Positions 6,564 to 51,688 of a stretch of DNA of 64,000 bases are shown here, in pieces. Below the pieces are notes generated by a model. The model saw nothing but the letters and a program-made list of their open reading frames with translations, was not told the DNA's origin and searched no databases. The position numbers were made by a program, and so were the translations under genes. Source of the stretch: an uncultured Spartobacteria bacterium (GTDB lineage Bacteria > Verrucomicrobiota > Verrucomicrobiia > Chthoniobacterales > JAATET01); the NCBI GenBank assembly GCA_937901895.1, contig CALGTD010000138.1:39688-103687 (forward strand), given 5' to 3'. How positions within the stretch are numbered: position 1 is the first letter of the stretch; each line of letters begins with the position of its first letter.

Positions 6564-7418
6564 GTGCCCAGCACACGCGACATCCGGCGGCGCATCAAGT
6601 CCGTCAAGAATACGGCGCAGATCACGAAGGCCATGCAGATGGTCGCCGCGTCCAAGATGCGCAAGGCGCAGACGACCGCGCTGGCCGGGCATCCCTATTC
6701 CCAGCTGCTGAACCGCGTGCTCGTCTCGCTGAGCGGCCGCGTCGATCACAGCCTCCATCCGCTCCTCGCCGAGCGCGAGGTGAAGCGTGAGCTTGTGCTC
6801 ATGATCAGCACGGACAAGGGTCTCTGCGGCGGTCTCAACACGAACCTGTTTCGCGAGGCGTCGAAGTTCGACGTCGCGACGACCGATTTCGTGAACGTGG
6901 GTCGCAAGGGCAAGCAGTTCCTTGCCCGCACGAAGCGCAATCTCATTGCCGACTTCGAGCTGCCCGACCAGCCGACCTTCCTCGAGGTGAAGCAAATCTC
7001 GAAGTTCTGCATCGAGAAGTTTCTTTCTGGCGAAGTCGACAAGGTCACGGTGCTCTATCCGCGCTTCGTGAACACGCTCACGCAGGCTCCCACCACGCTC
7101 ACGCTCCTGCCGATCGCCGCGCTGCCGGTCAACAACGACGTCAAGTCTCCCGATGAAGGCTCCTCCTTCATCTTCGAGCCCAGCGCCTACGACGTGCTCG
7201 ATGCGATTCTGCCGTATTACATCCACTTCGGCGTCTACCAGACGGTGCTCGACGCCCGTGCCTCCGAGCACAGCGCCCGGATGGTCGCCATGAAGAGCGC
7301 GACCGACAACGCGAAGACCCTCGTGAACGATCTCACGCTCGAATACAACAAGATCCGCCAGGCGAGCATCACCGCCGAACTTCTCGAAATCACCACCGCG
7401 CAAATGGCGCTGGGGTAA
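6564..7418 (+). CDS. atpG: F0F1 ATP synthase subunit gamma (GTG start)
   Basis: N-terminus PSTRDIRRRIKSVKNTAQITKAMQMVAASKMRKAQ and C-terminus ITAELLEITTAQMAL. The start codon at 6564 is gtg. Confidence 0.95.
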   Translation: MPSTRDIRRRIKSVKNTAQITKAMQMVAASKMRKAQTTALAGHPYSQLLNRVLVSLSGRVDHSLHPLLAEREVKRELVLMISTDKGLCGGLNTNLFREASKFDVATTDFVNVGRKGKQFLARTKRNLIADFELPDQPTFLEVKQISKFCIEKFLSGEVDKVTVLYPRFVNTLTQAPTTLTLLPIAALPVNNDVKSPDEGSSFIFEPSAYDVLDAILPYYIHFGVYQTVLDARASEHSARMVAMKSATDNAKTLVNDLTLEYNKIRQASITAELLEITTAQMALG

Positions 7419-7449
7419 ACCACCTTTAGACAGAATCGACAGAAATTGA

Positions 7450-8928
<1,479 letters not shown>

Positions 8929-9000
8929 TCTGGAGTCTTTGGATGAGAGTTGAGAGGCCCGTCCTCTCAACTCCCGGCTCCCAGCGATCAACGTTTCCCA

Positions 9001-9411
9001 ATGGCCACTCTCAAACTCGAAATCGTCACGCCCGAGGCGAAGACCTACTCCGACGACGTGGATTCCGTCGTGATTCCCGGCATCGAAGGCGAGATGCAGG
9101 TGCTTCCGCAGCACATTCCGCTCATGACGAAGCTCGCGCCCGGCGAACTCCGTGTAATGAAGAGCGGACAGGAGGTCCGGCTCGCCGTGGGCGAGGGATT
9201 TGTCGAGGTCACGCAGGAAAGCGTCTCCGTGCTCACCGACATGGCGATCAACGAGAACGAGATCGACGAGTCCGCCGCGGAGGCCGCAATGAAGCGTGCG
9301 GAAGAGGCGCTCAAGAACGAGCACGTCAGCGCCGAGCAGCATGCAGCGCTGCAGGCCGCTCTGCAGAAGTCCATGGCGCAGCTCAAGGTGAAGCGCCGTC
9401 GCGTCGTCTGA
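9001..9411 (+). CDS. atpC: F0F1 ATP synthase subunit epsilon
   Basis: ORF 8950..9411 trimmed to the ATG at 9001 (MATLKLEIVTPEAKTYSDDVDSVVIPGIEGEMQVLPQHIPLMT...). 136 aa, last gene of the operon. Confidence 0.92.
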   Translation: MATLKLEIVTPEAKTYSDDVDSVVIPGIEGEMQVLPQHIPLMTKLAPGELRVMKSGQEVRLAVGEGFVEVTQESVSVLTDMAINENEIDESAAEAAMKRAEEALKNEHVSAEQHAALQAALQKSMAQLKVKRRRVV

Positions 9412-9463
9412 CCCCGAACAACTAATCGGCAATTAGCCGGGAGTCCGCTATCATTGGGACTGA

Positions 9464-10129
9464 ATGTTCAAGCCCCATGCCATCATAGCGGAGTATCTGG
9501 CCGAGCTTCTCGCAGCCGGAGGATTTGTGCTTGGTCAGGTGCAGGTGATGCCCGGCCCCGTGCTCAGGCACGTGGACGACACGGGAGTCCTGGAGATCGC
9601 CACCCGTCCGGAGGACGCCAGGGAGATCGCCAAATACGACGGGGAGGGAAACTATCGTCCGCTGAAAACCGCGCCGAATCTCCGTCGTGGGTGGGAACTG
9701 CGTCTCGAATCCCTCGACGATCTTCGTAGAGCACTCGACTTTTTTTATCCCGCCGCGCTGGGAACGTGGTTTGCGTTTCGACGGAACGAACTGGTTCCCA
9801 TCCATCTCCGGGAGACGCTGGGCCGGCAGACCGGACGTTACCGCGTCACCAATCTCGTGACCGATGAACAGGCGGGGGAGGCCATCCGCAACCGCTGCAA
9901 TTCCCGGACCGGTTGTCTGCGGCGCCAGCTCTGGCGGATTTCTCCGGAGATTCAGAGTCCGTTCACGGAGGATCCCTCGGAGATCAAGTTCGACGGGTCG
10001 TTGCCCATTCTGTGCGTGGAGGCATGCAATCTCCTGGTCGCGGACATTCGTCCGATCGCGAAGCAGAATGTGCAGAACCCTTCGCGACGCGCGGACGGGG
10101 GCTCACTGGAACGCGAAGGGGTTTCGTGA
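9464..10129 (+). CDS. Conserved-looking hypothetical protein with a C-terminal four-Cys cluster (221 aa)
   Basis: Good coding statistics. The C-terminal region carries CNSRTGC (CX5C) and CVEAC (CX3C), a possible Fe-S or Zn site. Its stop overlaps the GTG start of the next gene (GTGA at 10126-10129). I cannot assign a family with confidence. Confidence 0.6.
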   Translation: MFKPHAIIAEYLAELLAAGGFVLGQVQVMPGPVLRHVDDTGVLEIATRPEDAREIAKYDGEGNYRPLKTAPNLRRGWELRLESLDDLRRALDFFYPAALGTWFAFRRNELVPIHLRETLGRQTGRYRVTNLVTDEQAGEAIRNRCNSRTGCLRRQLWRISPEIQSPFTEDPSEIKFDGSLPILCVEACNLLVADIRPIAKQNVQNPSRRADGGSLEREGVS

Positions 10130-36315: not shown

Positions 36316-37560
36316 TTATTCGATCTCCAGTCGCCGCTTCACGTCGGCCGAAAGCCGGTCGATCGCGGGCATGGCGTGCTCGTAGAACGCGCGGTAGCCG
36401 GCGCACAGCCAGTTGAGGCCGGGCTCGCCATCGGCGGTCCGAAGCAGGCGGTTCTTTGGACACTCGCCCCAGCAGACACGGAGGTATTCGCACCGGCGGC
36501 AGGCACGTGGAAGCGTCTCCGATTTCGCGTAGGCGAACTTCACCTGCTCCCGTGAGAACACGAGATCGACGAGATCATCGGAGAGGATGTTTCCGCGATA
36601 AAATTCCGGGTAAACAAAGTGATCGCAGGCGTAGACGCCGCCGTCGGCCTCGATCGCGAGGCATTTTCCGCAGAGTTCGGCGGACGTGCAGTTCTGCGCA
36701 GGCAGGCCCGCCCGCTGCGCGACGAGATCCTCGAAAATGCTGACGAAGATTCTGCCCGCGTCGTTGGTGATCCAGCGATCGAAGATTCGAATGAGGAAGT
36801 ATCCCCAGTCGTCCGGGTCCACGGTCCACGGCGTGACAATCGAGCGGGAATCGGGTGCTCCGGCGCGCGGGAGTTCCGTGGAATTCCATCTCCCCGGGGC
36901 GACGCGTTCGAAATCCCGGTGCTCGACGATCGGAATGAACTGCATCCGCAGGGAGCCGATGTCGTTTCGAAGGAAACGATACACGTCGAGCGGACGACGG
37001 GCGTTGTCGCGATGGACGCACGTCAGCGTGTTGAAAGGCACCCGATGCCGGTGCAGTCGCTTCGCGGTCTCGATGACTGCGCGCGATGTCGGCCCGCCAC
37101 AGTTCGTCATGCGATGCGCATCGTGAATCTCCGGCGGACCATCCATGCTCAGCCCAACGAGAAAGCGATTCTCCGCAAGAAACTCACACCACTCGTCGTC
37201 GAGCAGTGTGCCATTGGTCTGGATGTCGTTTTCGACGCGCTGGCCGGGACGTGCATGCCGGCGCTGAAACTCAAGAACCCGCCGGAAAAACGGAATGCCG
37301 CGAAGCGACGGCTCGCCACCCTGCCACGAGAATACAACGGGACCGGTGTCGAAAGCCGCGAGCTGCTTTTGGATGAAGGCCTCCAGCGTTTCGTCCGACA
37401 TTCGCGTCGGCCTCGGTCCGCCCGGCAAACGCGGCTTCGCGAGATAGAAACAATAGTCGCATCGGAGATTGCACGTGCTGCCGCCCGGCTTCGCCATGAG
37501 GTGGAAGCGATTTCCGCCCAGGCGCGCGGCGGCAAGTGGCGCATCGTATTTGTCGCGCAT
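36316..37560 (-). CDS. Anaerobic sulfatase-maturating enzyme (radical SAM / SPASM)
   Basis: CNLRCDYCFY radical-SAM cluster. SPASM cysteines are also present (CTSAELCGKC ... ACDHF ... CRRCEYLRVCWGECPKNR). The start is taken at the ATG at 37560 (MRDKYDAPL...); the longest ORF starts at 37644. Confidence 0.85.
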   Translation of the reverse strand: MRDKYDAPLAAARLGGNRFHLMAKPGGSTCNLRCDYCFYLAKPRLPGGPRPTRMSDETLEAFIQKQLAAFDTGPVVFSWQGGEPSLRGIPFFRRVLEFQRRHARPGQRVENDIQTNGTLLDDEWCEFLAENRFLVGLSMDGPPEIHDAHRMTNCGGPTSRAVIETAKRLHRHRVPFNTLTCVHRDNARRPLDVYRFLRNDIGSLRMQFIPIVEHRDFERVAPGRWNSTELPRAGAPDSRSIVTPWTVDPDDWGYFLIRIFDRWITNDAGRIFVSIFEDLVAQRAGLPAQNCTSAELCGKCLAIEADGGVYACDHFVYPEFYRGNILSDDLVDLVFSREQVKFAYAKSETLPRACRRCEYLRVCWGECPKNRLLRTADGEPGLNWLCAGYRAFYEHAMPAIDRLSADVKRRLEIE

Positions 37561-37692
37561 GTTCGCCCAGAATGGACAAAGCGCATGGGTGAAACCTTGC
37601 GGACGGGCAGGGAATTTTCCGCCCAGGCGCTGGAGGCGACGCATCCATCATCGTGGGCGCCGGCTGCGTCCGGCGCGCGAGTGGGCAGCGGA

Positions 37693-38247
37693 TCAAATCA
37701 CGCGGCTGTTCATCCGTCGTGGCGACGACCCGCCTTTCGCCGTGCGGCATTCGCACTCTTCCAGATCGGCGACGTGGTGCTTCACGACGGCACGACGCAG
37801 CTCGGAAAAGTGCCCGTTCTCGCAGCACAACACGAAGCTCTCCATGATGGTTTTGAGCTCCTCCCAGTGGCGACGCACGGAGCGGGCCTCCGCGTCGGTG
37901 ATCTCGTTGTCCATGCTGGCGTGGGCAATCACGGCCAGCATATTGGCGAACTCCTGAATGATCTCATTCGTCGCGGGTAGAAGGTCGTTGCATTGATCCC
38001 GGTGCTCGGGATCCCAGACGAAAAATCCCCCGGCGTGATGACACAGCCATTGAATGATCGGCAGATGGTCGGTGAGTTCGATCAGCAGGCGCGTCCGGTC
38101 GAGCGGGTTTCGAGCTCCGCTGCGATCATCTCCGTCGCTTTGCGCCCATTTGTAAACAATGGAAAGGGAGACGCCAAGGGCAGCGGCGATTTCCTTCGGG
38201 CTGCGCTTTTCGTATGCCGCGCGCAAGACCTCATGGGATTCCTGCAT
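37693..38247 (-). CDS. HTH-domain regulatory protein (184 aa), phage CII/YdaS-like N-terminal layout
   Basis: N-terminal HTH SPKEIAAALGVSLSIVYKWAQ is followed by a helical domain. It is divergently transcribed from the NfeD-flotillin-ATPase genes, with a 123-bp shared intergenic region. Confidence 0.6.
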   Translation of the reverse strand: MQESHEVLRAAYEKRSPKEIAAALGVSLSIVYKWAQSDGDDRSGARNPLDRTRLLIELTDHLPIIQWLCHHAGGFFVWDPEHRDQCNDLLPATNEIIQEFANMLAVIAHASMDNEITDAEARSVRRHWEELKTIMESFVLCCENGHFSELRRAVVKHHVADLEECECRTAKGGSSPRRMNSRVI

Positions 38248-38370
38248 GGCGCTCAGAATGGGGCCTGTCGGGACTGCCGCGCAAGGAATCCGTGATGAGA
38301 AACAACGGATGTTTTTGTAACAGCGATTGACACAGTCGCTTCGCTACTTTCCGCGGCGAGGAGGAAAGTC

Positions 38371-38985
38371 ATGCAAGCACTGATTGACCAGGCCCTGTTC
38401 GCCCCGACGCTGCCATTTACGGTGCTGCTTGCCGCACTGGCGCTTTACTGGATCGGTGCGGCGTTCGGCTTCGTTTTCAGCGAGGACGAAATGTTCGACG
38501 CCTCGGACACCGACGGCGCATGGGCTTCGTTTCTTTCGTTCCTGAATGTCGGCGAGGTTCCGGTGATGATCGTCATCACGGTCCTCACGCTTTCCACGTG
38601 GGTGCTCAGCATCCTTGGGAACGAGTTTCTCGCGGGCGGCTCGCTGGCATTGGGGTTCGTGCTGCTCGTTCCGGCGTTCGCGGTTAGCTGCGTGATCACC
38701 CGGTTCACGACCGCGCCGTTCAAGAAGGTGCTGCGCCTGCTCAACAACGAGGGGGAGGCTCCCATGCAGCTCATCGGCAAGGTCGCCAAAGTGACCACCG
38801 CATCCGTTACCGACCGATACGGGCAGGCGGCTGTGGAGACCGGCGGAGCGCCCGTGATTGTGCAGGTGCGTGTCGCCGCCGGCGAATCACTGGCCCGTGG
38901 CGACAGCGCGCTCATCGTCGCAGAGAACGCCGCGACCGGAACTTTTACCGTCCGAAAAGTCAGCAACCAACAACTGGAGAACTAA
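38371..38985 (+). CDS. YqiJ/NfeD-like membrane protein (TM helices plus a C-terminal OB-fold), 204 aa
   Basis: A strong SD (GGAGGA, 38360-38365) precedes it. About 4 TM helices are followed by a soluble beta-rich C-domain (LIGKVAKVTTASVTDRYGQAAVETGGAPVIVQVRVAAGESLARGDSALIV). It ends 3 nt upstream of a flotillin gene, as in yqiJK. Confidence 0.75.
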   Translation: MQALIDQALFAPTLPFTVLLAALALYWIGAAFGFVFSEDEMFDASDTDGAWASFLSFLNVGEVPVMIVITVLTLSTWVLSILGNEFLAGGSLALGFVLLVPAFAVSCVITRFTTAPFKKVLRLLNNEGEAPMQLIGKVAKVTTASVTDRYGQAAVETGGAPVIVQVRVAAGESLARGDSALIVAENAATGTFTVRKVSNQQLEN

Positions 38986-38988
38986 ACC

Positions 38989-40995
38989 ATGGAACTCATC
39001 ACACCACTTGCACTGCTGATCGGGATCATTGCGGTCCTGATCCTGCTGGGCTTCCTCGTCATGATCGTTCGCTGCTACCGCAAGGTGGACCAGGGACAGG
39101 CGCTCGTGCGCAACGGCCTCGGCGGCACGAAGGTGTCGTTTTCCGGCATCGTCGTGCTTCCTGTCATCCACAAGGCGGAATTCATGGACATTTCCGTCAA
39201 GCGGGTGGAGATCGATCGCGCCGGCGTGAACGGTCTGATCTGCCGGGACAACATGCGCGCCGACATCAAAGTCGCATTCTTCGTGCGGGTGAATCAGACC
39301 GCGCAGGATGTGTTGAAGGTCGCGCAGTCGATCGGATGCACGAGGGCGTCGAGCCAGGGCGCCATCGTCGATCTGTTCGATGCGAAGTTTTCCGAGGCGC
39401 TGAAAACCGTCGGGCGGCAGTTCGATTTCGTCGAGCTCTACAACTCCCGCGAGAAACTCAAGGACGACATCATCCAGCTCATCGGCACGGATTTGAACGG
39501 ATTCGTGCTCGAGGATGTTGCGATCGATTACCTCGAGCAGACGCCGCTCAATCTTCTCAATCCCGACAACATTCTCGACGCGGAGGGCATCAAGAAGATC
39601 ACCCAGCTCACCGCGTCGCAGAAGGTGCTCGCGAACCAGATCGACCGCGAGCGGGAGAAGACGATCAAGAAACAGGACGTCGAGGCCCGCGAGGCCATTC
39701 TCGAGCTCGAGCGGCAGCAGGCCGAGGCGGAGGAAAAGCAGAGGCGCGAGGTCGCAGCCGTGGCGGCGCGCGAGCAGGCCGAGGCGAAGAGAGTGCAGGC
39801 GGAGAATCTGCTCAAGAGCGAAGCCGCCCGCATCCGGGCCGAGGAGGAAATCGCGATCGCCGAGGAAAACAAGAACCGGCAGATCATCGTTGCCCGCAAG
39901 AACAAGGAACGCACCGATGCCATCGAGACCGAGCGCGTCGAGCGGGACCGGCTCATCGAGGTCACTGAGCGCGAGCGCATCGTCGAACTTGCGACGATCG
40001 AGAAGAACAAGGCGATCGAGGTCGAGCAGAAGGCGATTCAGGACGTGATTCGCGAGCGCCTTGTCGTCGAGAAATCGGCGGTTGAGGAGCGTGAGCGGAT
40101 CAAGGACACCGAGGCGGTCGCCGCCGCGGACCGCGAGAAAAAGGTGAAGATCACCGAGGCGGAGATGCAGGCCGAACAGGCGCTGGTGAAGGATATCAAG
40201 GCCGCCGAGGCCGCGAAACGGGCCGCGGAACTGCTGGCTGAGCAGGAGTTGTTCAGCCGCGTGAAGCAGGCGGAAGCCGAAAAGGAAGCCGCAGAGCTGC
40301 GGGCGCAGGAGATCCTCATCGCCGCTGAGGCGGAGCAGGCAGCCGCCGTCAAACAGGCCGAGGCGAAGAAATCGCTCGCCGAAGCGACGATCGCGGAGGT
40401 TGCAGCCACCGGACTTGGCGAAGCACAGATCATCCAGGCGAAGGCCGATGCCGAAGCGAAGGGCATTCAGGAGAAAGCGGAGGCCATGAAGGCGCTCGAT
40501 GGCGTGGGTCGCGAGCACGAGGAGTTCAAGCTCCGCCTCAACAAGGAGAAGGAGATCGAGCTGGCGGGAATCACGGTCCAGCGTGAAATCGCCGAGCAGC
40601 AGGCACGCGTCCTGGGCGAGGCGCTCAAGAGCGCGAAGATCGACATCGTTGGCGGCGAGGCCCAGTTCTTCGACAAGATCACGGGTGCGATCACCAATGC
40701 GAAGGTCGTGGACCGGCTTGTGCTGGGAAGCAACACGCTTTCCGACATCAAGGACACGTTCTTCACGGGCGATCCCGAGGACTTCCGCAAACGGCTCGCC
40801 GAGTGGTTCCAGCTCTTCGGAGTGTCGAGCGAGGACGTGAAGAACCTCACGATCGCCGCGGCGCTCGGAAAGCTGATCAGCGAAGCGGACGATGACCGCA
40901 GCCGTGGCGTGCTCGCGACGCTGCTCCATCGTGCAAAACTCGCGGGCGTATCCGAAAAGACGGTGGGCTCTTTGGGCGCACTGGCAGTGAATTAA
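38989..40995 (+). CDS. Flotillin-family SPFH/Band-7 protein (YqiK-like), 668 aa
   Basis: N-terminal TM helix, then an SPFH domain (VVLPVIHKAEFMDISVKRVEIDR...DIKVAFFVRVN). A very long Glu/Ala/Lys/Arg-rich coiled coil follows (EAREAILELERQQAEAEEKQRREVAAVAAREQAEAKR...), then a flotillin C-terminal region. Confidence 0.9.
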   Translation: MELITPLALLIGIIAVLILLGFLVMIVRCYRKVDQGQALVRNGLGGTKVSFSGIVVLPVIHKAEFMDISVKRVEIDRAGVNGLICRDNMRADIKVAFFVRVNQTAQDVLKVAQSIGCTRASSQGAIVDLFDAKFSEALKTVGRQFDFVELYNSREKLKDDIIQLIGTDLNGFVLEDVAIDYLEQTPLNLLNPDNILDAEGIKKITQLTASQKVLANQIDREREKTIKKQDVEAREAILELERQQAEAEEKQRREVAAVAAREQAEAKRVQAENLLKSEAARIRAEEEIAIAEENKNRQIIVARKNKERTDAIETERVERDRLIEVTERERIVELATIEKNKAIEVEQKAIQDVIRERLVVEKSAVEERERIKDTEAVAAADREKKVKITEAEMQAEQALVKDIKAAEAAKRAAELLAEQELFSRVKQAEAEKEAAELRAQEILIAAEAEQAAAVKQAEAKKSLAEATIAEVAATGLGEAQIIQAKADAEAKGIQEKAEAMKALDGVGREHEEFKLRLNKEKEIELAGITVQREIAEQQARVLGEALKSAKIDIVGGEAQFFDKITGAITNAKVVDRLVLGSNTLSDIKDTFFTGDPEDFRKRLAEWFQLFGVSSEDVKNLTIAAALGKLISEADDDRSRGVLATLLHRAKLAGVSEKTVGSLGALAVN

Positions 40996-41047
40996 TCCCG
41001 GCGCGGCGGGAGCGCTGCTTCCGCCGCGTTCTTCCAAGGATCGATCG

Positions 41048-44000
41048 ATGGAAAACAAACCACCGACAATCGAAGGCGGCACCTACGAGGTTTTGCGCGC
41101 CCGGCTCGACGAGCAGGCGCGTGACCTCCGGGAGCGGTTGGAGCGGCTGAACGACGCGCGGCAGGAGGTCTTCGGGACCATCGAAACCGCGCTTGTCGCG
41201 ACGGGGCGGATCTCCACCGAGAACAACTGCGTCCCTCGCGACATGGTCGCGATTCGCAAACGCCGGTCGCTGCTTGGCTACAATGTCCACATCGGCCTGC
41301 GCTCGGAGGTCCGGCTCGAGGATGTGTTTACCGCCTACCAGCGCGAGGGGGACGAGTTTCGGCCGATCCCGCTCGATTTCCTGAGGGATCCGGACTTCGA
41401 AGCCGACTTCCAGAGTCTTTTCAAATACTACAAGAACACCGTCTTCACGAAGTTCGCGTTCATTGGGCCGCACCTCTTTTTTGTTTTTCAGGTCGGCCAG
41501 CGCGTGACGGACGTGAAGACATTCAAGTGGCTCGTCGGGGAGGACGGCGCGTTCACATACCTCGGAAACCGCAGCGACCACGAGTTTGTCTTTCCGCCAC
41601 AGCACGAGTTCGAGTGGAAGCGCACGCATCGCGACCTGCATCGCGATGGGCTTCATCCACATATATCGATCGAGGACCGCGTGTTTGTCGAAACGATCGG
41701 CGGCGACCTCACGATCAAGGTTGAAGATAACACCGACACCGGCGCGGGCATCTACAGCGAGCCAGTTGAGCATGCCGATCAGACGCTCGACGATGCGGAG
41801 ATTTTCTACGCCGTCGTCGGCAATCTCGTTCTGCTGCGCATCCGTCCCTACCAGGAGAAGACCTGGCGGTATTTTGTATTCAACGAAAAGCTCCAGCACG
41901 TCCGGCGAATCGATGCGATCGAGCAGTCCTGTGTGCTGTTGCCGGACGGACACGGCATTATCTTCTCGCGCGGCTACTATTTGCAAAGCGGAGAGCTGAA
42001 ACTCTTCGACGCGAACTCGACCGACATGCTTTTCGAGCGGCGGATTGCCGCGCCGAACCGCGAGGATCACCTCTTCTGCTTCTACAATCGCGAGCGCGGC
42101 GACTACATCCTGATGCCCTACAACGTGATCACGCAGCGCGTGGACACGCCCATTCATTGCCAGGGTTTTTCCATCTTCGACAGCGGCGAACTTGCGCTCT
42201 TCAAGGGGGACTCGGAACCGCAGAAACATCACACCGTCCAGATCTGGCAGACGCCGTTCACCGGCTCGACGTTCCAGACTCCGGCGAAGACCGATTCGTT
42301 TCTCTTCAAAGTTGGCAACGGCGACATCGTCCGCTGCATGGCTGAGTGCCACGAGATTCTCGGGCTGATTGCGCGCGACGAACCCTATGCCGACCTCTAT
42401 GTGGACCTTCGCAAGAGGGCCGGCGACGTGCTCGACTCGTATTTCTGGTTGCGGGAGGAGGACGCCTTTCGGTTGGTCGAACCGCTCGCGGCGATCCGCG
42501 ATGCCGCGGATCGAACGATCGAGGAGTTCGACAAGGTGCTCGAGCTGCGTCGCACGGCGGCATCGAAACTGGAAGAAGTCGCAGGAAAGGCGCGCGCACT
42601 GACGGAGGGGATTGTTCCGGGGGAGTTGCAGGATATCGACGCCTACGTGCATGCGCTGGCCGGTCTGCGCACCGTTCGCGGTGAGCTGATTGCGCTCCGG
42701 GACGTCCGATACATCGATCTGGAACGGGTCGATACCGAGGAACAACTTGTCGCCGACTGCAGTGAGGAAGTGTCCAGGCTGTGCGTGGAGTTTCTTCTCG
42801 GTGATGCGGCGCTTTCCCCGTATCGCGAGCGCGTGAAGGCGCTGGAATGCCGGATCGATGAAATCTCCCGCGTCGTTGACGGGCGCGCGCTCGAAGAGGA
42901 GATGACCGTAGCCGGCGCGGACCTGAGCATGCTCATTGAGATCGTCGGCAATCTGCAGATCGACGATGCGACGGCGACGACGCGGATTATTGACGACATC
43001 TCCGCAATCTACGCGGCGCTGAACCAGAACCTCGCCCGCCTGCGCCAACGACTTGCCGGGCTGCGTCAGAGCGAGGGAGCGGCGCAGTTTGGAGCGCAGC
43101 TGAAGCTTGTCACCCAGGCCGTAACAAACCTGCTCGAGCGCTGCGACACACCGGAGAAGTGCGATGAAGCGCTCGGGCGCATGATGGTGCAGCTCGAGGA
43201 GCTGGAGACGCGTTTTGCGGAGGCGGCGGAGTTTCTCGAGCCACTGGCGGAGAAGCGCACGGAGGTCATCTCTGCGTTCGAGGCGAGAAAACTCGCGCTT
43301 TTGGAGGCGCGCAACCGGAAGGCGACCGCGCTGGCCGGGGTGGCCGACCGCATGCTGAAGGGAATTCAAACCCGGGTGGCGTCCATCGATGACGTCGCGG
43401 CCATCCACGGATTTTTCGCGTCCGATCTCATGGTCGACAAGCTGCGCGATGTCATTCAGCAGTTGCTCGATCTCGGCGATCCCGTGAAGGCCGATGATGC
43501 GCAGTCGCGATTGAAGACCCTGCGCGAGGAGGCCGTGCGTCAGCTCAAGGATCGAAAGGAGCTGTTCGTTGATGGTTCGGACGTCGTTGCGTTTGGTCCG
43601 CACCGGTTCAATGTGAACACGCAGCCGACCGATCTGACCGTGCTGCATCGGGACGACGGCCTGTTTCTGCATCTTTCCGGCACGCGCTTTTTCGAGCGGA
43701 TCGAGGATCCCGAACTTGATGAGCTTCGTCCCGTTTGGGACCTCGAGGTTGTTTCCGAATCGCACGACGTGTATCGCGCGGAGTGGCTCGCCTGCAAGCT
43801 GCTCAGAAGCCTTGAAGATGGCGGTCGGCTGGCGGAAGCCGCCCGGTGGAGTTCCGCGCAATGGCTCGATGAGGTGCGGAATTTCATGTCCCCGCGATAC
43901 GCCGAAGGTTATGTGCGGGGAATTCATGATGCGGACGCGGTCCGAATTCTGGAAGCGCTGGCGCCGATGCACCTGGCGGCCGGAACGGTGCGGCATCCTC

Positions 44001-46081
44001 CGTCCGCGCGGGTGCTCGGAATCATGGCCTGGGATCATTTCGACAATGCGGAGGAACGGGCGCTGCTGGAGGGACAACTGGCGAGCCATGGCGCGATGCG
44101 AGGTGTCTTCGAAACCGAGGCCCGCCCGGCGCCGTATCTCGCAAGGCTCGAGGGCGTCTGCCGGCGGGCAATCGAAAGCGGAGCGCCGTTCGACGAATCA
44201 CTGGTTTCCCCCGCGGCGGAATATTTGTTCGACGCGTTGAGTTCGGGAGAGGGATTCGCGTTCAGCCAGGACGCTTTCGAGGTGTTCCGCGCGTTCGAAG
44301 ATGATGTGCGGGAGCGGGGAGCCTTCGACCGGTTTGTGGAGCTTCGAAAGGCGGTGGAGACCAATCCGTGGCGCCACTTCGAGATGCTTCGCGATTGGAT
44401 GAGCGGGTTTCTGCGCCGCAGCGACAGGGACGGGACGTTTTGTGACGAGGCAGTCTTCCTGCTGAAGCGCGGCGCGCATCACCAGCATCGCGTGGTCGAT
44501 GTTGAGCTGCGTGTGGATCTCACCGGCATGCTCGGCCAGCATCCTCGCCTCCGGAACGGCGCCTATGTGCTGGATTACCTGGATTTCACGGACCGTCTCG
44601 AGCGTCACGAGCGTGTCACGGCACCCGCCTTCGAGCGGTTTCAGGCGATCAAACGCCGTCTCTCCGAAGTGGGAGCCAGTCGCCTGCGGGTCGAGGAGCT
44701 TCGTCCGAAGGTGCTGACATCGTTTGTCCGGAACCGCCTTGTGGATGAGGTCTTTTTGCCGCTCGTCGGCGCAAACCTCGCGAAGCAGATGGGCACCGCG
44801 GGCGCGAATACGCGCACGGATCGCATGGGTCTGCTGCTGTTGATTTCACCTCCCGGCTACGGCAAGACGACGCTTATGGAATATGTCGCGAGCCGGCTCG
44901 GGCTCGTGTTCATGAAGATCAATGGTCCGTCGCTCGGCGCCGGCGTCACCTCGCTGGATCCCTCGCATGCTCCGAATGCTGCGGCGCGCGAGGAGATCGA
45001 GAAACTGAATCTCGCATTCGAGATGGGCGACAATGTGATGATCTATGTGGACGACATCCAGCATTGTCATCCCGAGTTCCTGCAGAAGTTCATTTCGCTC
45101 TGCGACGGCCAGCGGCGGATCGAGGGTGTCTATCGCGGACAGGCGCGCACCTACGACCTGCGCGGGCGGAAGGTCGCCGTGGTCATGGCGGGAAATCCCT
45201 ACACGGAAAGCGGCGAGAAGTTCCGGATTCCCGACATGCTCGCGAACCGGGCCGATACCTACAATCTCGGCGACATCGCTGTGGGCGCGCACTTCGAAGC
45301 GTTCCGCCTGAGCTACCTTGAGAATGCGCTCACGTCGAACGCGGTGCTGAACCCTCTCGCCGCGCGCGGGCGCAAGGACATCCTTGGCGTCATTCGAATT
45401 GCGGAGACCGGTGGCCGCGATGGCGTCGAGCTTGAAGGCAATTACACCGCTCGGGAACTCGAAGACATGGTTTCCGTCGTGAAGAAGCTCGGCCGCATCC
45501 GCGACGTGATCCTGAAGGTGAATGCGGAATACATCCGCTCCGCCGCGCAGGCCGATGCCTACCGCACCGAGCCGCCGTTCCGCCTGCAGGGATCGTATCG
45601 CAACATGAACCGCATGGCCGAGAAGGTCGTGCCGGTGATGAACGACGAAGAACTCGAAGCGCTCGTGATGGACCACTACCGCAACGAGGCCCAGACGCTC
45701 ACGACGGGTGCCGAGGCGAACCTGCTCAAGCTGCGGGAACTTCTCGAAAAACTCACTCCGGAGGAGGCGGCGCGATGGGAGGAAATTCGGAAGACCTTTC
45801 GTCGCAACCTGCTGGTGGCGGGGACGGAAGGGGATGACCCGATTGCGCAGGTTGTCCGGCAGCTCGTGGCGTTTAATGTCGGGCTGGAAGGGATCAAGGA
45901 CGTTATCGGGAGCATGGCCGCGAAGCCGGAACGCCCGCCCGCGGGATCCGATCCGGGGATCGATCTCACGAAGGTCGCGATCTCGCGCGAGACCTTGCAG
46001 AAGATCTGGGAGCTCATCGAGCAGGACAAGATTCGGGCGAACAAGGGCGACACGTTGCAGGTGAAGATTCCGGAGGAGTAG
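41048..46081 (+). CDS. Giant (1,677 aa) protein with a single MoxR/AAA_5-like AAA+ ATPase module near the C-terminus; function unknown
   Basis: Walker A SPPGYGKTT is at 44846-44872 and Walker B VMIYVDDIQH at 45035-45064. An AAA_5-like sensor region follows (VAVVMAGNPYTESGEKFRIPDMLANRADTYNLGD). The N-terminal ~450 aa are beta-rich, and aa ~470-1000 are long helical/coiled-coil segments. No TM helix or signal peptide was seen. Confidence 0.85.
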   Translation: MENKPPTIEGGTYEVLRARLDEQARDLRERLERLNDARQEVFGTIETALVATGRISTENNCVPRDMVAIRKRRSLLGYNVHIGLRSEVRLEDVFTAYQREGDEFRPIPLDFLRDPDFEADFQSLFKYYKNTVFTKFAFIGPHLFFVFQVGQRVTDVKTFKWLVGEDGAFTYLGNRSDHEFVFPPQHEFEWKRTHRDLHRDGLHPHISIEDRVFVETIGGDLTIKVEDNTDTGAGIYSEPVEHADQTLDDAEIFYAVVGNLVLLRIRPYQEKTWRYFVFNEKLQHVRRIDAIEQSCVLLPDGHGIIFSRGYYLQSGELKLFDANSTDMLFERRIAAPNREDHLFCFYNRERGDYILMPYNVITQRVDTPIHCQGFSIFDSGELALFKGDSEPQKHHTVQIWQTPFTGSTFQTPAKTDSFLFKVGNGDIVRCMAECHEILGLIARDEPYADLYVDLRKRAGDVLDSYFWLREEDAFRLVEPLAAIRDAADRTIEEFDKVLELRRTAASKLEEVAGKARALTEGIVPGELQDIDAYVHALAGLRTVRGELIALRDVRYIDLERVDTEEQLVADCSEEVSRLCVEFLLGDAALSPYRERVKALECRIDEISRVVDGRALEEEMTVAGADLSMLIEIVGNLQIDDATATTRIIDDISAIYAALNQNLARLRQRLAGLRQSEGAAQFGAQLKLVTQAVTNLLERCDTPEKCDEALGRMMVQLEELETRFAEAAEFLEPLAEKRTEVISAFEARKLALLEARNRKATALAGVADRMLKGIQTRVASIDDVAAIHGFFASDLMVDKLRDVIQQLLDLGDPVKADDAQSRLKTLREEAVRQLKDRKELFVDGSDVVAFGPHRFNVNTQPTDLTVLHRDDGLFLHLSGTRFFERIEDPELDELRPVWDLEVVSESHDVYRAEWLACKLLRSLEDGGRLAEAARWSSAQWLDEVRNFMSPRYAEGYVRGIHDADAVRILEALAPMHLAAGTVRHPPSARVLGIMAWDHFDNAEERALLEGQLASHGAMRGVFETEARPAPYLARLEGVCRRAIESGAPFDESLVSPAAEYLFDALSSGEGFAFSQDAFEVFRAFEDDVRERGAFDRFVELRKAVETNPWRHFEMLRDWMSGFLRRSDRDGTFCDEAVFLLKRGAHHQHRVVDVELRVDLTGMLGQHPRLRNGAYVLDYLDFTDRLERHERVTAPAFERFQAIKRRLSEVGASRLRVEELRPKVLTSFVRNRLVDEVFLPLVGANLAKQMGTAGANTRTDRMGLLLLISPPGYGKTTLMEYVASRLGLVFMKINGPSLGAGVTSLDPSHAPNAAAREEIEKLNLAFEMGDNVMIYVDDIQHCHPEFLQKFISLCDGQRRIEGVYRGQARTYDLRGRKVAVVMAGNPYTESGEKFRIPDMLANRADTYNLGDIAVGAHFEAFRLSYLENALTSNAVLNPLAARGRKDILGVIRIAETGGRDGVELEGNYTARELEDMVSVVKKLGRIRDVILKVNAEYIRSAAQADAYRTEPPFRLQGSYRNMNRMAEKVVPVMNDEELEALVMDHYRNEAQTLTTGAEANLLKLRELLEKLTPEEAARWEEIRKTFRRNLLVAGTEGDDPIAQVVRQLVAFNVGLEGIKDVIGSMAAKPERPPAGSDPGIDLTKVAISRETLQKIWELIEQDKIRANKGDTLQVKIPEE

Positions 46082-46159
46082 ACACCGACAGGCCCGCGGG
46101 ACCTTCCGGGTGGGCTTTGACGGCTTGATGGAGGAATGCGGCCCTGCCATGGTGCGGCC

Positions 46160-46624
46160 ATGAAGCGCCTGTTCCTCTCCGTTGCTTTGGTCGTCGTCGC
46201 CATCGTCGCAACCGGCTGTCTTGCATCTCCGGTTTCGAGTTCGGGAGGCTTCGGCGCGGTGACGGTCACCAACACGAATGTCGACGCGATCAATGCGGCG
46301 GCACAGGCGGTCTTCGCTGAATACGGCTATCAACCCGGACCGATGAACTATCCGGACTCCTTTTCCTTCGACAAGAAGGCGGGCGCCTTTGGACAGCTCA
46401 TGTATGCGAGCTACAACGACCCGACTTCCTACCGCGTCACGCTCTTCACGACGCAGCTTCCCGGCACGAACGATTTCCGCCTGAGCACACGCGTCGCGCG
46501 CGTTTCGGACGCCGGCGAAGCGGGATTCGAGGATACGACCCGCATGTCGGGACTGTGGTCCGCGGAATTTGGTCCGATCCTGAAGAAGATTGCCGCCCAG
46601 GCACAGGGCGCTGGTGGCATTTGA
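46160..46624 (+). CDS. Lipoprotein of unknown function (154 aa)
   Basis: Trimmed to the ATG at 46160 (MKRLFLSVALVVVAIVATGC, a lipobox). It is co-directional with and immediately downstream of the giant ATPase. Confidence 0.65.
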   Translation: MKRLFLSVALVVVAIVATGCLASPVSSSGGFGAVTVTNTNVDAINAAAQAVFAEYGYQPGPMNYPDSFSFDKKAGAFGQLMYASYNDPTSYRVTLFTTQLPGTNDFRLSTRVARVSDAGEAGFEDTTRMSGLWSAEFGPILKKIAAQAQGAGGI

Positions 46625-46633
46625 TCCCGCAGG

Positions 46634-46650
46634 GCGCCCCGGCGGGGCGC
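46634..46650 (+). terminator. GC-rich hairpin after the lipoprotein gene (possible terminator, no U-tract)
   Basis: GCGCCCC (46634-46640), ggc, GGGGCGC (46644-50). The 7-bp stem starts 10 nt after the stop codon. Confidence 0.3.
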
Positions 46651-50036: not shown

Positions 50037-50315
50037 ATGGCCACCACGGCGAAAGTGCTGCTTTGGGTTTTGGGGATGTTTCTTATTCCGCCGTTCGTCG
50101 GATTTCTCACGGGAGCGGCAAGTAATTGGGCAAACGCCGGTGCATTCGTCGCCTATGGCTTCGTGATGATTGGAATGGCGGTGGGGGCGGCTGTGAACGT
50201 GGCGCGAAGTCCGGCAGCGCGGATTGGCCTGTTTTTTGTTTTTGCGGTCGGAATGCTCTTCCTGCAGTGCGCCGTCTTTTTTGTCGGTTGCACGATTCTC
50301 GTGTCGGTCGCGTGA
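50037..50315 (+). CDS. Small three-TM membrane protein (92 aa)
   Basis: Trimmed to the ATG at 50037 (MATTAKVLLWVLGMFLIPPFVGFL...). It has three hydrophobic helices. Its TGA overlaps the GTG start of the radical-SAM gene (GTGA, 50312-50315). Confidence 0.6.
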   Translation: MATTAKVLLWVLGMFLIPPFVGFLTGAASNWANAGAFVAYGFVMIGMAVGAAVNVARSPAARIGLFFVFAVGMLFLQCAVFFVGCTILVSVA

Positions 50316-51688
50316 GCGGAATCGTAATCCCGAATCCTCTGGGCTCGCTGCTCAAGCGCACGCGCAGCCGGTGTGTGGTATGTCATCAGGATTGCCCCGC
50401 CGAGGTGCGGCGAAAGGCGGAGGATGGCGTCGAGAAGGTCTTTCTCACGCGCTCTTGCCCGATGCATGGCTCGCAGACGACCTGCATCGCGTCGGACGCG
50501 AGGTTCTACTGGCTCGCGCAAGGCAATCCGGACAATGCGTGCTGTGGCCCGGGGGCAGCCTGCTGCGCCTCGACGGGCGAGCCGGCCGGGTCGCTGGGCA
50601 AAAACGCATTGGGGCGGGCTGACGGTCCTTTCGAGAAGCTCTCCACCTGCCTCGCGCTGATCGAGATTGTCGATACCTGCAATCTTGCATGTCCTGTGTG
50701 CTATGCGGATTCGCCGCGCGATCATGCGACCATTGGTGCGAAACCCGTCGACGAACTGCAGGCACGGATCCAGGGCGTGATCGATCGCAAGGGCGAGATC
50801 GACATCCTGCAATTCTCCGGCGGCGAGCCGACGATCCATCCGCAATTCTTCGAGCTGCTCGAGTGGGCACAGTCGCATGCGGGCATTCGGTATGTGCTTG
50901 TGAATACAAACGGCGTGAAGCTTGCCACGGATGACGAGTTTCTTGCCGGCATGGCGGCGGCGGCTCGGCGACGGGGATTGCAGGTATATCTTCAATTCGA
51001 TGGCACTCTCGAGGCGGGGCAGCGGGAGTTGCGGGGAGGGGATCTGCGGGCGATGCGGGAGCGGGCGATTGTGCGTTGTGGCGAGATCGGTCTGCCGGTC
51101 ACGCTGGCCATGACCGTGACGCAGGAAAATCTCTCGAACGTGTGGGACACGGCGGAGTTCGGCCTGCGTTTTCCGCAGGTGCGCGGTGTGAGCTATCAGC
51201 CGTTTTTCACGAGTGGGCGACGTGTCGCGCTGGATCCTGGCTACAGACCGCTCACGACGGCCGATGTGCTGCTGGCGCTCATTGCGAACGGTCCACTAAA
51301 GGCGGACGATTTCACGCCGTTGCCATGTGGTGATCCGAACTGCGCGACCATCGGCTACCTGCTGCGCGTGGCGGAGGAGGTGCGGCCCATCAGCGAGTTT
51401 CTCGATTTCCGTGAGCTGCAGGGTTTCCTTCGCGACAAGGTGCGTTACTCGCTGGACGACCTTGTCCAGTGCGGTTGCGAGAACGAGCCGCTCGGCGAGT
51501 TGCTCAAGCAATTCGAACTCGATGAGTCGAATACGTTCCGGCTTTTCGTGAAGCCGTTCATGGATGCGTTCACCTGGGACGAGGATCGCATCGACCGCTG
51601 TTGCACGCATGTGATCCGCGAGGATGGCCGACTCGACTCGTTTTGCCGCTACTACTCCGGATTCCCGGATACGTGTTGCGCTCCGTGA
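50312..51688 (+). CDS. Radical SAM enzyme with an N-terminal Cys/His knuckle and extra C-terminal Cys clusters; resembles the COG1964 / tetraether-lipid-synthase (Tes, GDGT-MAS) family
   Basis: In-frame GTG at 50312. The N-terminus reads CVVCHQDCPAEV...VFLTRSCPMHG...SDARFYW. The radical-SAM CNLACPVC (CX3CX2C) lies at 50678-50701, followed by FSGGEPT. Later cysteine motifs are PLPCGDPNCATIGY, VQCGCENEP and RCCTHV...SFCRYY. Confidence 0.75.
   Translation: MSGIVIPNPLGSLLKRTRSRCVVCHQDCPAEVRRKAEDGVEKVFLTRSCPMHGSQTTCIASDARFYWLAQGNPDNACCGPGAACCASTGEPAGSLGKNALGRADGPFEKLSTCLALIEIVDTCNLACPVCYADSPRDHATIGAKPVDELQARIQGVIDRKGEIDILQFSGGEPTIHPQFFELLEWAQSHAGIRYVLVNTNGVKLATDDEFLAGMAAAARRRGLQVYLQFDGTLEAGQRELRGGDLRAMRERAIVRCGEIGLPVTLAMTVTQENLSNVWDTAEFGLRFPQVRGVSYQPFFTSGRRVALDPGYRPLTTADVLLALIANGPLKADDFTPLPCGDPNCATIGYLLRVAEEVRPISEFLDFRELQGFLRDKVRYSLDDLVQCGCENEPLGELLKQFELDESNTFRLFVKPFMDAFTWDEDRIDRCCTHVIREDGRLDSFCRYYSGFPDTCCAP

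Follow-up and report, generated by a model that had tools for sequence, protein, structure and literature searches.

Is the gene for a giant soluble ATPase found beside a bacterial flotillin gene by chance, and, if not, what might the ATPase do there? The locus that raises this question lies in a 64,000-nt stretch of DNA from an uncultured Spartobacteria bacterium (contig CALGTD010000138.1; the whole stretch is called the window below), in which a yqiJ-like membrane-protein gene, a flotillin gene and a gene for a giant protein with one AAA+ module follow one another. A preliminary description of the window had proposed that these genes, with a divergent helix-turn-helix (HTH) regulator and a lipoprotein gene, encode an uncharacterised flotillin-coupled machine. 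We re-read and translated the five open reading frames (ORFs) at 37693-46624, and they lie exactly where that description had placed them, as do the 3-nt, 52-nt and 123-bp spacings between them. We conclude that functional coupling of the YqiJ-like protein, the flotillin and the giant ATPase (the triad) is well supported by comparison across genomes, and that the window holds an HTH-regulated, Verrucomicrobiota-type member of an operon class already recognised by comparative genomics.

Synteny and co-inheritance of the triad

We scanned one genome per GTDB species for the giant gene and obtained 80 loci in seven phyla (Verrucomicrobiota, Planctomycetota, Bacteroidota, Desulfobacterota, Kiritimatiellota, Omnitrophota and Bacillota). 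Where at least 2.5 kb of flanking sequence was present, a flotillin gene lay directly upstream on the same strand in 61 of 64 loci; with truncated contig ends counted in, the figure was 70 of 76 informative loci. The gap between the two genes was at most 300 nt in 44 of these 70 (in the window it is 52 nt, and the yqiJ-like gene ends 3 nt before the flotillin gene), and a yqiJ-like orthologue was detectable before the flotillin gene in 54 of the 61 loci with enough flank. Six informative loci, L021, L025 and L045 among them, carry the giant gene with no adjacent flotillin and with unrelated neighbours. Distant homologues of the giant protein in PLSDB (39-44% identity; Pseudomonadota, Actinomycetota and Deinococcota) gave the same picture, with a flotillin gene upstream in 8/8 loci and a yqiJ-like gene in 7/8. 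Their hosts include the Pseudomonas fluorescens SBW25 plasmid pQBR103, Proteus mirabilis, Vibrio campbellii, Halomonas, Streptomyces, Nonomuraea and Deinococcus, and overall the syntenic triad is represented in at least ten phyla. Synteny with flotillin and NfeD genes had been named beforehand as the test of the proposed machine, and the enrichment around homologues of the giant protein is overwhelming (70/76 and 8/8 loci).

The reciprocal check is to start from the flotillin rather than from the ATPase. A general search for flotillin homologues returned only relatives of more than 61% identity, and the reciprocal test was therefore done on PLSDB, whose 309 flotillin records we ranked by the number of covered query residues times identity. 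The 13 top-ranked records are exactly the 13 records that carry the giant gene. These flotillins are 42-58% identical to that of the window over the aligned part, while the other 296 are at most 37.5% identical and have the giant gene in 0/296 cases. Co-occurrence of 13/13 against 0/296 excludes chance adjacency, and it sets the giant-linked flotillins apart as a dedicated subfamily. The similarity matrices of the two proteins correlate at r = 0.77, a value computed without an unlinked control gene, and both genes place Deinococcus among the Gammaproteobacteria; these two observations are consistent with transfer of the genes as a unit.

The association is not new. The preliminary description knew of no function coupling the yqiJK pair to a giant AAA+ protein, but such an operon has been described by Ravi et al. 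(mSystems 2024, PMC11237479; preprint 2020), comprising a CesT/Tir-PspA dyad, a YqiJ/YuaF protein with three transmembrane segments, a flotillin and an ATPase with β-propeller, coiled-coil and AAA+ regions. These authors drew a similar functional inference from genomic context, and noted a wider spread for abbreviated operons, made up only of the flotillin, YqiJ/YuaF and in some cases the ATPase, whose products may act with a PspA from another place in the genome. We found no experimental work on the triad in the literature, and to that extent the system is uncharacterised, as the preliminary description had it.

The Dokdonia-type arrangement of Ravi et al. is reproduced in 14-16 of the Bacteroidota loci that we retrieved with the giant protein of the window, in the order divergent HTH_3 plus Peptidase_S24 gene, CesT_Tir_1, PspA/IM30, yqiJ-like gene, flotillin and giant ATPase. 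PspA/IM30 is within the operon in 15 loci, 14 of them also with CesT_Tir_1; in a 16th it is on the opposite strand, 6 kb away. The link extends beyond the Bacteroidota. In a Kiritimatiellota locus (L016, bacterium B12222, CP120722.1; 6131-9830), a short PspA/IM30 protein (190 aa; 40.7 bits against a cut-off of 33.9) is encoded between a homologue of the window's HTH gene, here co-oriented with the operon and not divergent, and the yqiJ-like gene. We read this locus as a bridge, within the Planctomycetes-Verrucomicrobia-Chlamydiae group, from the abbreviated to the PspA-containing form. On pQBR103 (L083, NC_009444.1 84452-105392) the triad stands at the end of an operon that starts with YjfI and PspA/IM30 and continues with a rhomboid protease, DUF2491, DUF350, DUF1190 and glutathionylspermidine synthase; this cluster, on a megaplasmid that has been well studied, merges two PspA neighbourhood classes of Ravi et al., and among the papers listed we found none linking pQBR103 with flotillin, SPFH, PspA or phage-shock topics. 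Operon-encoded PspA is known, then, from three phyla. Searches of the 64-kb window with hidden Markov models (HMMs) built from the Bacteroidota neighbours found no PspA, CesT or HTH-S24 gene, so that the window, which lacks the CesT/Tir-PspA dyad, fits only the "abbreviated" form.

Some loci depart from the common layout. A conserved ORF of about 140 aa lies between the flotillin and giant genes in three Verrucomicrobiota loci (L033, 9483-9935; L062, 8434-8856; L065, 9508-9924), and other loci have different, non-conserved insertions at this point. In L094, on a 775-kb contig, the flotillin gene (7189-9998) is read as three consecutive ORFs of 204, 311 and 292 aa, reflecting either assembly frameshift errors or a decaying gene; transposases and a HigB/HTH toxin-antitoxin pair follow the giant gene there.

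The three proteins and what the ATPase may do

The giant protein matches DUF3686 over the full profile (1-448 of 448, E 6e-186), followed by DUF7902 (E 1e-23) and by matches to AAA (28.3 bits) and AAA_5 (25.8 bits against a cut-off of 22), both above their cut-offs. It contains no hydrophobic segment by hydropathy, whereas both of its partners are membrane proteins. Profile searches and fold comparison thus bear out the earlier view of a soluble protein whose ATPase module is MoxR/AAA_5-like. AlphaFold2 models were made of residues 1-700 (pLDDT, the predicted local distance difference test score, 86.1) and 681-1677 (pLDDT 86.8), and the first shows an N-terminal helix, a propeller and then long helices. 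With the N-terminal part, Foldseek retrieved generic propellers only (Sec12, Ycf48, prolyl oligopeptidase and the clathrin terminal domain); a clathrin-like resemblance of the propeller and helical region gave TM-scores of 0.15-0.2 and was set aside as generic.

By target TM-score, the AAA+ module comes closest in fold to the MoxR proteins CbbQ2 (0.62) and NorQ (0.55-0.60), with RuvB (0.41-0.47) next. In the C-terminal model, sensor 1 is preceded by a β-hairpin (DSSP strands 677-690), a feature not known from classical AAA proteins, and an NP...R motif after β4 resembles the MoxR signature. Sequence matches in the Protein Data Bank (PDB) to p97 and Rix7 are marginal (E 1e-4 or worse). Walker A (GYGKTT, 1270-1275), Walker B (DD, 1335-1336), the NP pair (1383-1384) and R1401 do not vary among 15 aligned homologues (52-73% identity), the invariant residues being G1270, K1273, T1274, D1335, D1336, N1383, P1384 and R1401. 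The named motifs (Walker A, Walker B, the sensor-1 region and the arginine) are therefore predicted to be catalytically intact. Few peptides in the family are conserved as strongly as FMK[IV]NGP[AS]..., the loop after β2 of the AAA+ core.

More than 3,900 homologues at E <=1e-10 share this domain set, and most are named "DNA repair ATPase" or are unnamed. At 50% identity the DUF3686 domain is represented by 740 sequences, of which those of full length always measure 1,600-2,036 aa. Three homologues (P0079, P0101 and P0097) have ankyrin or HEAT repeats N-terminal to DUF3686 in precomputed Pfam annotation, that is, further protein-protein interaction modules at the same end as the β-propeller. 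A 1,711-aa homologue of 54% identity (P0090, EukProt) comes from the proteome of the dinoflagellate Durusdinium trenchii, and may be bacterial contamination or a real eukaryotic gene.

The flotillin has one hydrophobic segment (aa 9-27), taken as an N-terminal transmembrane segment. No Pfam family matches the full-length protein, but when residues 1-230 are scanned alone Band_7 (PF01145) is found with E 1.3e-11 and 45.3 bits against a cut-off of 23.6. Among the homologues in the matches listed (120, P0121-P0240), none has a precomputed Pfam domain. The long Glu/Ala-rich coiled coil probably triggers the composition (bias) filter of HMMER, so that routine domain annotation would miss this flotillin subfamily. 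PDB sequence searches with the full-length protein and with its N-terminal part gave nothing useful. E. coli YqiK aligns with residues 6-506 at 31% identity (BLASTP, E 4e-50), and residues 507-668 do not align to it. Residues 507-580 are kept in every giant-linked flotillin that we tested with phmmer, and the C-terminal region is undetectable in YqiK at E values up to 10. A C-terminus common to the linked flotillins and undetectable in YqiK marks a distinct subfamily, the same conclusion that was reached above from co-occurrence.

The yqiJ-like gene is directly upstream of the flotillin gene and co-oriented with it. Its product has three hydrophobic, presumably transmembrane, segments by hydropathy, and its assignment to the YqiJ/YuaF type is weak on the single sequence and supported at family level. 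The window protein scores 20.5 bits with Pfam YqiJ_N, below the cut-off of 23, and matches E. coli YqiJ weakly (E 3e-4). Across 50 orthologues, however, YqiJ_N matches 23 (best E 3.5e-8) and NfeD matches 3, and the sole PDB match of the family profile is YuaF (2K14), weak at E 0.26.

We favour, with moderate confidence, the view that the triad works as an envelope-stress module, with the ATPase remodelling flotillin assemblies and, where PspA is present, PspA assemblies also. Held by its single N-terminal anchor, the flotillin would, as is expected from what is known of these families, join with the YqiJ-like partner in a large oligomer, shaped as a dome or clamp, on the cytoplasmic side of the inner membrane. 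The soluble ATPase would oligomerise through its MoxR/RuvB-like AAA+ module, and its helical arms and terminal β-propellers could reach the flotillin assembly, plausibly docking on the subfamily-specific C-terminus. Hydrolysis of ATP might then open, disassemble or recycle the assembly, its clients and, where co-encoded, PspA polymers, and the role of the whole would be protection or repair under envelope or membrane stress. Co-inheritance, operon arrangement, domain architecture with large protein-binding appendages, intact motifs, fold matches to AAA+ proteins that act as remodellers, the solubility of the ATPase beside two membrane-protein partners and the recurring association with PspA and CesT argue for a remodeller. 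The view also fits three precedents: the HflK/C-FtsH cages, the flotillin-NfeD pair of Staphylococcus aureus, an ATP-independent holdase clamp for unfolded proteins (PMC11222466), and human flotillin, described as a 44-mer dome (PMC13000311).

Several observations pull the other way. The six giant loci without an adjacent flotillin indicate that strict linkage in cis is not obligatory, and the correlation of the similarity matrices has no control gene. Any PspA link in the window itself would have to act in trans. Physical contact between ATPase and flotillin is something that we infer, and docking on the flotillin C-terminus, plausible as it may be, is an argument from conservation only. The usual partners of MoxR ATPases carry VWA domains (CbbO, NorD and ViaA), and no VWA domain was found in the five proteins or in the conserved neighbour clusters.

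The favoured view has a sharper form, in which the giant ATPase would be the ATP-driven machine, missing until now, that opens or takes apart bacterial flotillin/SPFH domes and co-encoded PspA polymers: a ring of MoxR-like AAA+ domains with long helical, propeller-tipped arms gripping the subfamily-specific flotillin C-termini. We offer this only tentatively, as possible and rather doubtful. According to a 2025 review, a Vps4-like ATPase appears to be absent in bacteria (PMC7619361). If the sharper form were true, the disassembly machine would be a non-homologous bacterial functional counterpart of Vps4, and the flotillin cycle of bacteria would gain its first known step that consumes energy.

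A different division of labour would have the flotillin and YqiJ-like protein hold damaged or unfolded membrane proteins while the ATPase extracts, unfolds or hands them on, a functional analogue of HflK/C-FtsH and of prohibitin-m-AAA with no protease domain of its own. SPFH cages do partner AAA+ proteases, as in HflK/C-FtsH (PMC13220708), and flotillin-NfeD does retain unfolded proteins (PMC11222466). The highly conserved loop after β2 and the rhomboid protease gene in the pQBR103 version of the operon would also suit such a role. However, the giant protein has no protease domain, no protease is found among the conserved neighbours, no canonical aromatic pore-loop motif was identified in the giant protein, and its AAA+ fold is nearer to MoxR and RuvB than to classical unfoldases. 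We judge this explanation plausible, though rather unlikely.

The preliminary description had also entertained an anti-phage role; this would make the triad a membrane-sensing or abortive-infection system. In its favour are the patchy distribution, the apparent horizontal transfer, the carriage on megaplasmids, a regulator of the phage CII/CP76-like family, and toxin-antitoxin or mobile genes near some loci (L021 and L094). However, Pfam, NCBIfam and PADLOC searches with all five proteins gave no defence-system match. PADLOC matches only the P-loop region of the giant protein, and weakly (best IetA, E 0.0036 over 29 residues), with no match to the flotillin or the YqiJ-like protein, and tblastn found a homologue of the giant protein in 0/50,697 phage records. 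The genes flanking the locus in the window are of housekeeping type (a radical SAM/SPASM enzyme, an amino-acid permease and an α/β-hydrolase). Elsewhere it is PspA, CesT and polyamine genes that recur as partners, and nucleases and other effectors do not. The 53-57% identity of the giant protein across phyla, with few clusters at 50% identity, is unlike that of fast-evolving defence genes. A defence function is thus very improbable.

Finally, a DNA repair ATPase or Holliday-junction helicase with flotillin as an incidental neighbour, as suggested by database labels ("ATPase involved in DNA repair", "Holliday junction resolvasome, helicase subunit"), by weak RuvB_N/RuvB matches (E 5e-4 to 8e-5, far under the cut-offs and confined to aa 1247-1296) and by RuvB among the fold matches, is effectively refuted by genomic context: the neighbours are membrane-protein genes in 70/76 GTDB and 8/8 distant PLSDB loci with chance adjacency excluded, the likeness to RuvB is limited to the generic AAA+ core, neither Pfam nor Foldseek revealed a domain that binds nucleic acids, and we found no paper that uses the term DUF3686. 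As to the labels themselves, the Holliday-junction name is attached to P0241, a sequence present in NCBI, JGI/IMG, Logan and ENA that falls in the same 90%-identity cluster as the giant protein of the window; other homologues are labelled "DNA repair ATPase" or "MoxR-like ATPase", and we found no evidence backing these labels.

Regulator, control region and accessory genes

The remaining parts of the locus are conserved far less widely than the triad. The divergent regulator has an HTH_23 match at residues 6-35 and is 70% identical to the divergent gene of L081, the closest relative of the window locus (giant protein 73% identical); Pfam Phage_CP76 is found on the divergent regulators of L081 and L094. 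Homologues adjoin the yqiJ-like gene in L016, L028, L038, L042, L046 and L078. Together with L081 and L094 these are the only loci in which the regulator is kept, all of Verrucomicrobiota/Kiritimatiellota type, and we did not find it in the Bacteroidota, Planctomycetota, Proteobacteria or Actinobacteria loci. It is a lineage-specific accessory part, some of whose relatives are phage CII/CP76-like.

Within the divergent control region, the Shine-Dalgarno (SD) sequence AGGAGG (38359-38364) stands 6 nt before the ATG of the membrane-protein gene, and the inverted repeat ATCCGT-N11-ACGGAT is at 38288-38310; both are where the preliminary description had put them, as is the GC hairpin at the far end of the cluster. 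The repeat is real as a sequence, but its significance is not borne out. An inverted repeat with 6-bp arms and a spacer of 3-20 nt occurs in 47% of all 123-nt stretches of the window, so that this one is by itself no more than chance would provide, and it is not kept in L081. We therefore rejected it as an operator. Next to it, the element TTTTTGTAACAGC (38312-38324) is kept in L081 (about 7259-7271). The heptamer GTTACAA/TTGTAAC occurs in 6/8 of the HTH-yqiJ intergenic regions, and the L078 region begins at TTACAA. Elements of this type are seen in the window, in L081 and among the intergenic regions of L028, L038, L042, L046 and L078. Five regions share the form TTACAA-N14-T[AG]TA[AG][TC], and that of L078 contains the perfect dyad TTACAA-N13-TTGTAA. 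On this pattern of conservation, the GTTACAA/TTGTAAC element makes a stronger candidate for an operator or promoter than does the ATCCGT repeat.

The last ORF has a lipoprotein-type signal peptide ending ...IVATGC, judged by hydropathy and translation, and begins 54 nt after the giant gene. Gene calling on the source contig puts its start at M9 (46160), which is probably correct and gives a protein of 154 aa. It matches no Pfam, NCBIfam or PADLOC family. The preliminary description counted it as a member of the cluster, a claim that we had to drop: no homologue was found in the 80 giant-gene loci, and another gene takes its place in relatives whose giant proteins are 73% and 63% identical (a non-homologous gene in L081 and the HigB/HTH pair in L094). 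It is best regarded as a local passenger. The hairpin GCGCCCCG-G-CGGGGCGC (46634-46650) begins 10 nt past its stop codon; it has no T-run (U-tract), and the terminator scan did not call it as an intrinsic terminator. Near the locus are two radical SAM genes, at 36316-37644 (-) and 50126-51688 (+); one has a SPASM domain, the other an HMPTM-type zinc ribbon, and judged by conservation in other loci neither is related to the triad. Table 1 lists the features.

Table 1. Features of the locus, with positions counted along the 64,000-nt window
Feature	Position (nt)	Strand	Residues (aa)	Basis or content
HTH regulator, 184 aa	37693-38247	-		HTH_23 match
Divergent control region, 123 bp	38248-38370	.		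repeats, conserved element, SD
YqiJ/YuaF-type (NfeD2-like) membrane protein, 204 aa	38371-38985	+		3 transmembrane segments, predicted C-terminal β-rich soluble domain
Flotillin, 668 aa	38989-40995	+		Band_7, 1 transmembrane segment, YqiK homology
Flotillin: SPFH/Band_7 domain			32-179	
Flotillin: long Glu/Ala-rich helical region			between Band_7 and C-terminal region	
Flotillin: subfamily-specific C-terminal region	40507-40992	+	507-668	
Giant soluble ATPase, 1,677 aa	41048-46081	+		DUF3686, DUF7902 and AAA
Giant ATPase: roughly 7-bladed β-propeller, after an N-terminal helix	41189-42250		48-401	AlphaFold2 model
Giant ATPase: helical/coiled-coil arms, including DUF7902			588-669 (DUF7902)	Pfam and model
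Giant ATPase: further helical region with small β domain			after the arms	AlphaFold2 model
Giant ATPase: single AAA+ module	44834-45280		1263-1411	Pfam and model
Giant ATPase: helical lid/C-terminal domain, then disordered tail			after the AAA+ module	AlphaFold2 model
Predicted lipoprotein, 162 aa	46136-46624	+		lipoprotein-type signal peptide
GC-rich hairpin, 8-bp arms	46634-46650	+		repeat scan

Significance and comparison with known systems

The function of bacterial flotillins, and the way in which their large assemblies are built, opened and recycled, is the question on which the giant ATPase bears. The best mechanistic work on flotillins to date describes a holdase that does not depend on ATP; a highly conserved giant ATPase, inherited with a dedicated flotillin and repeatedly associated with PspA, points to an energy-dependent step in the biology of membrane domains or membrane repair. 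Thousands of database entries are named as DNA repair ATPases or Holliday-junction helicases, and the genomic context argues that these names are wrong. Because the triad occurs in workable hosts (P. fluorescens SBW25 with pQBR103, Proteus mirabilis, Vibrio campbellii, Streptomyces, Deinococcus and Hymenobacter), the hypothesis is directly testable.

The nearest known system is the operon of Ravi et al. (PMC11237479), whose three core genes recur in the window in the same order and with the same domain architectures. Compared with the full operon, the window is without pspA and cesT, has a CP76-like regulator in place of the HTH plus S24 gene, and has an extra, non-conserved lipoprotein gene. 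The published account of the operon is a matter of a few sentences, with no quantification, structure or experiments. The E. coli yqiJK and B. subtilis yuaFG (floT) pairs, of the NfeD2-SPFH2 type, have the same two genes in the same order, and the partner in the window resembles YqiJ and YuaF. The E. coli pair has no third gene, however, and is followed by sibD/ibsD where the window has the giant ATPase gene. The flotillin of the window is also about 115 aa longer than YqiK, with a C-terminal region that YqiK lacks.

The MoxR family (CbbQ, NorQ and RavA) provides the best fold matches to the AAA+ module, in keeping with the AAA_5 score. MoxR proteins are of about 300-500 aa, whereas the giant ATPase has a 1,230-aa N-terminal extension, β-propeller and helical, that has no counterpart in them. 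With no VWA partner either, we describe it as having a MoxR-like ATPase core and do not file the locus as a MoxR system.

The preliminary description had drawn an analogy with ESCRT-III/Vps4 and with PspA systems. As an analogy it is apt: in ESCRT-III/Vps4 and PspA-PspF, too, genetic linkage joins an ATPase to a polymer that remodels membranes, PspA belongs to the ESCRT-III superfamily, and the operon itself encodes PspA in three phyla. It does not extend to homology of the ATPase, which has no MIT domain by Pfam and, unlike Vps4, is not of the classical clade, and which, unlike PspF, has no σ54-activator domain.

Among AAA+ partners of SPFH proteins, FtsH is a membrane-anchored protease of the classical clade working in a periplasm-facing cage, whereas the ATPase of the window is soluble, has about 1,700 aa and no protease domain, and is of another AAA+ type. 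What HflK/C-FtsH and prohibitin-m-AAA share with the triad is the pairing of a membrane-bound SPFH oligomer with an AAA+ ATPase, and in this they offer a precedent for its mode of action.

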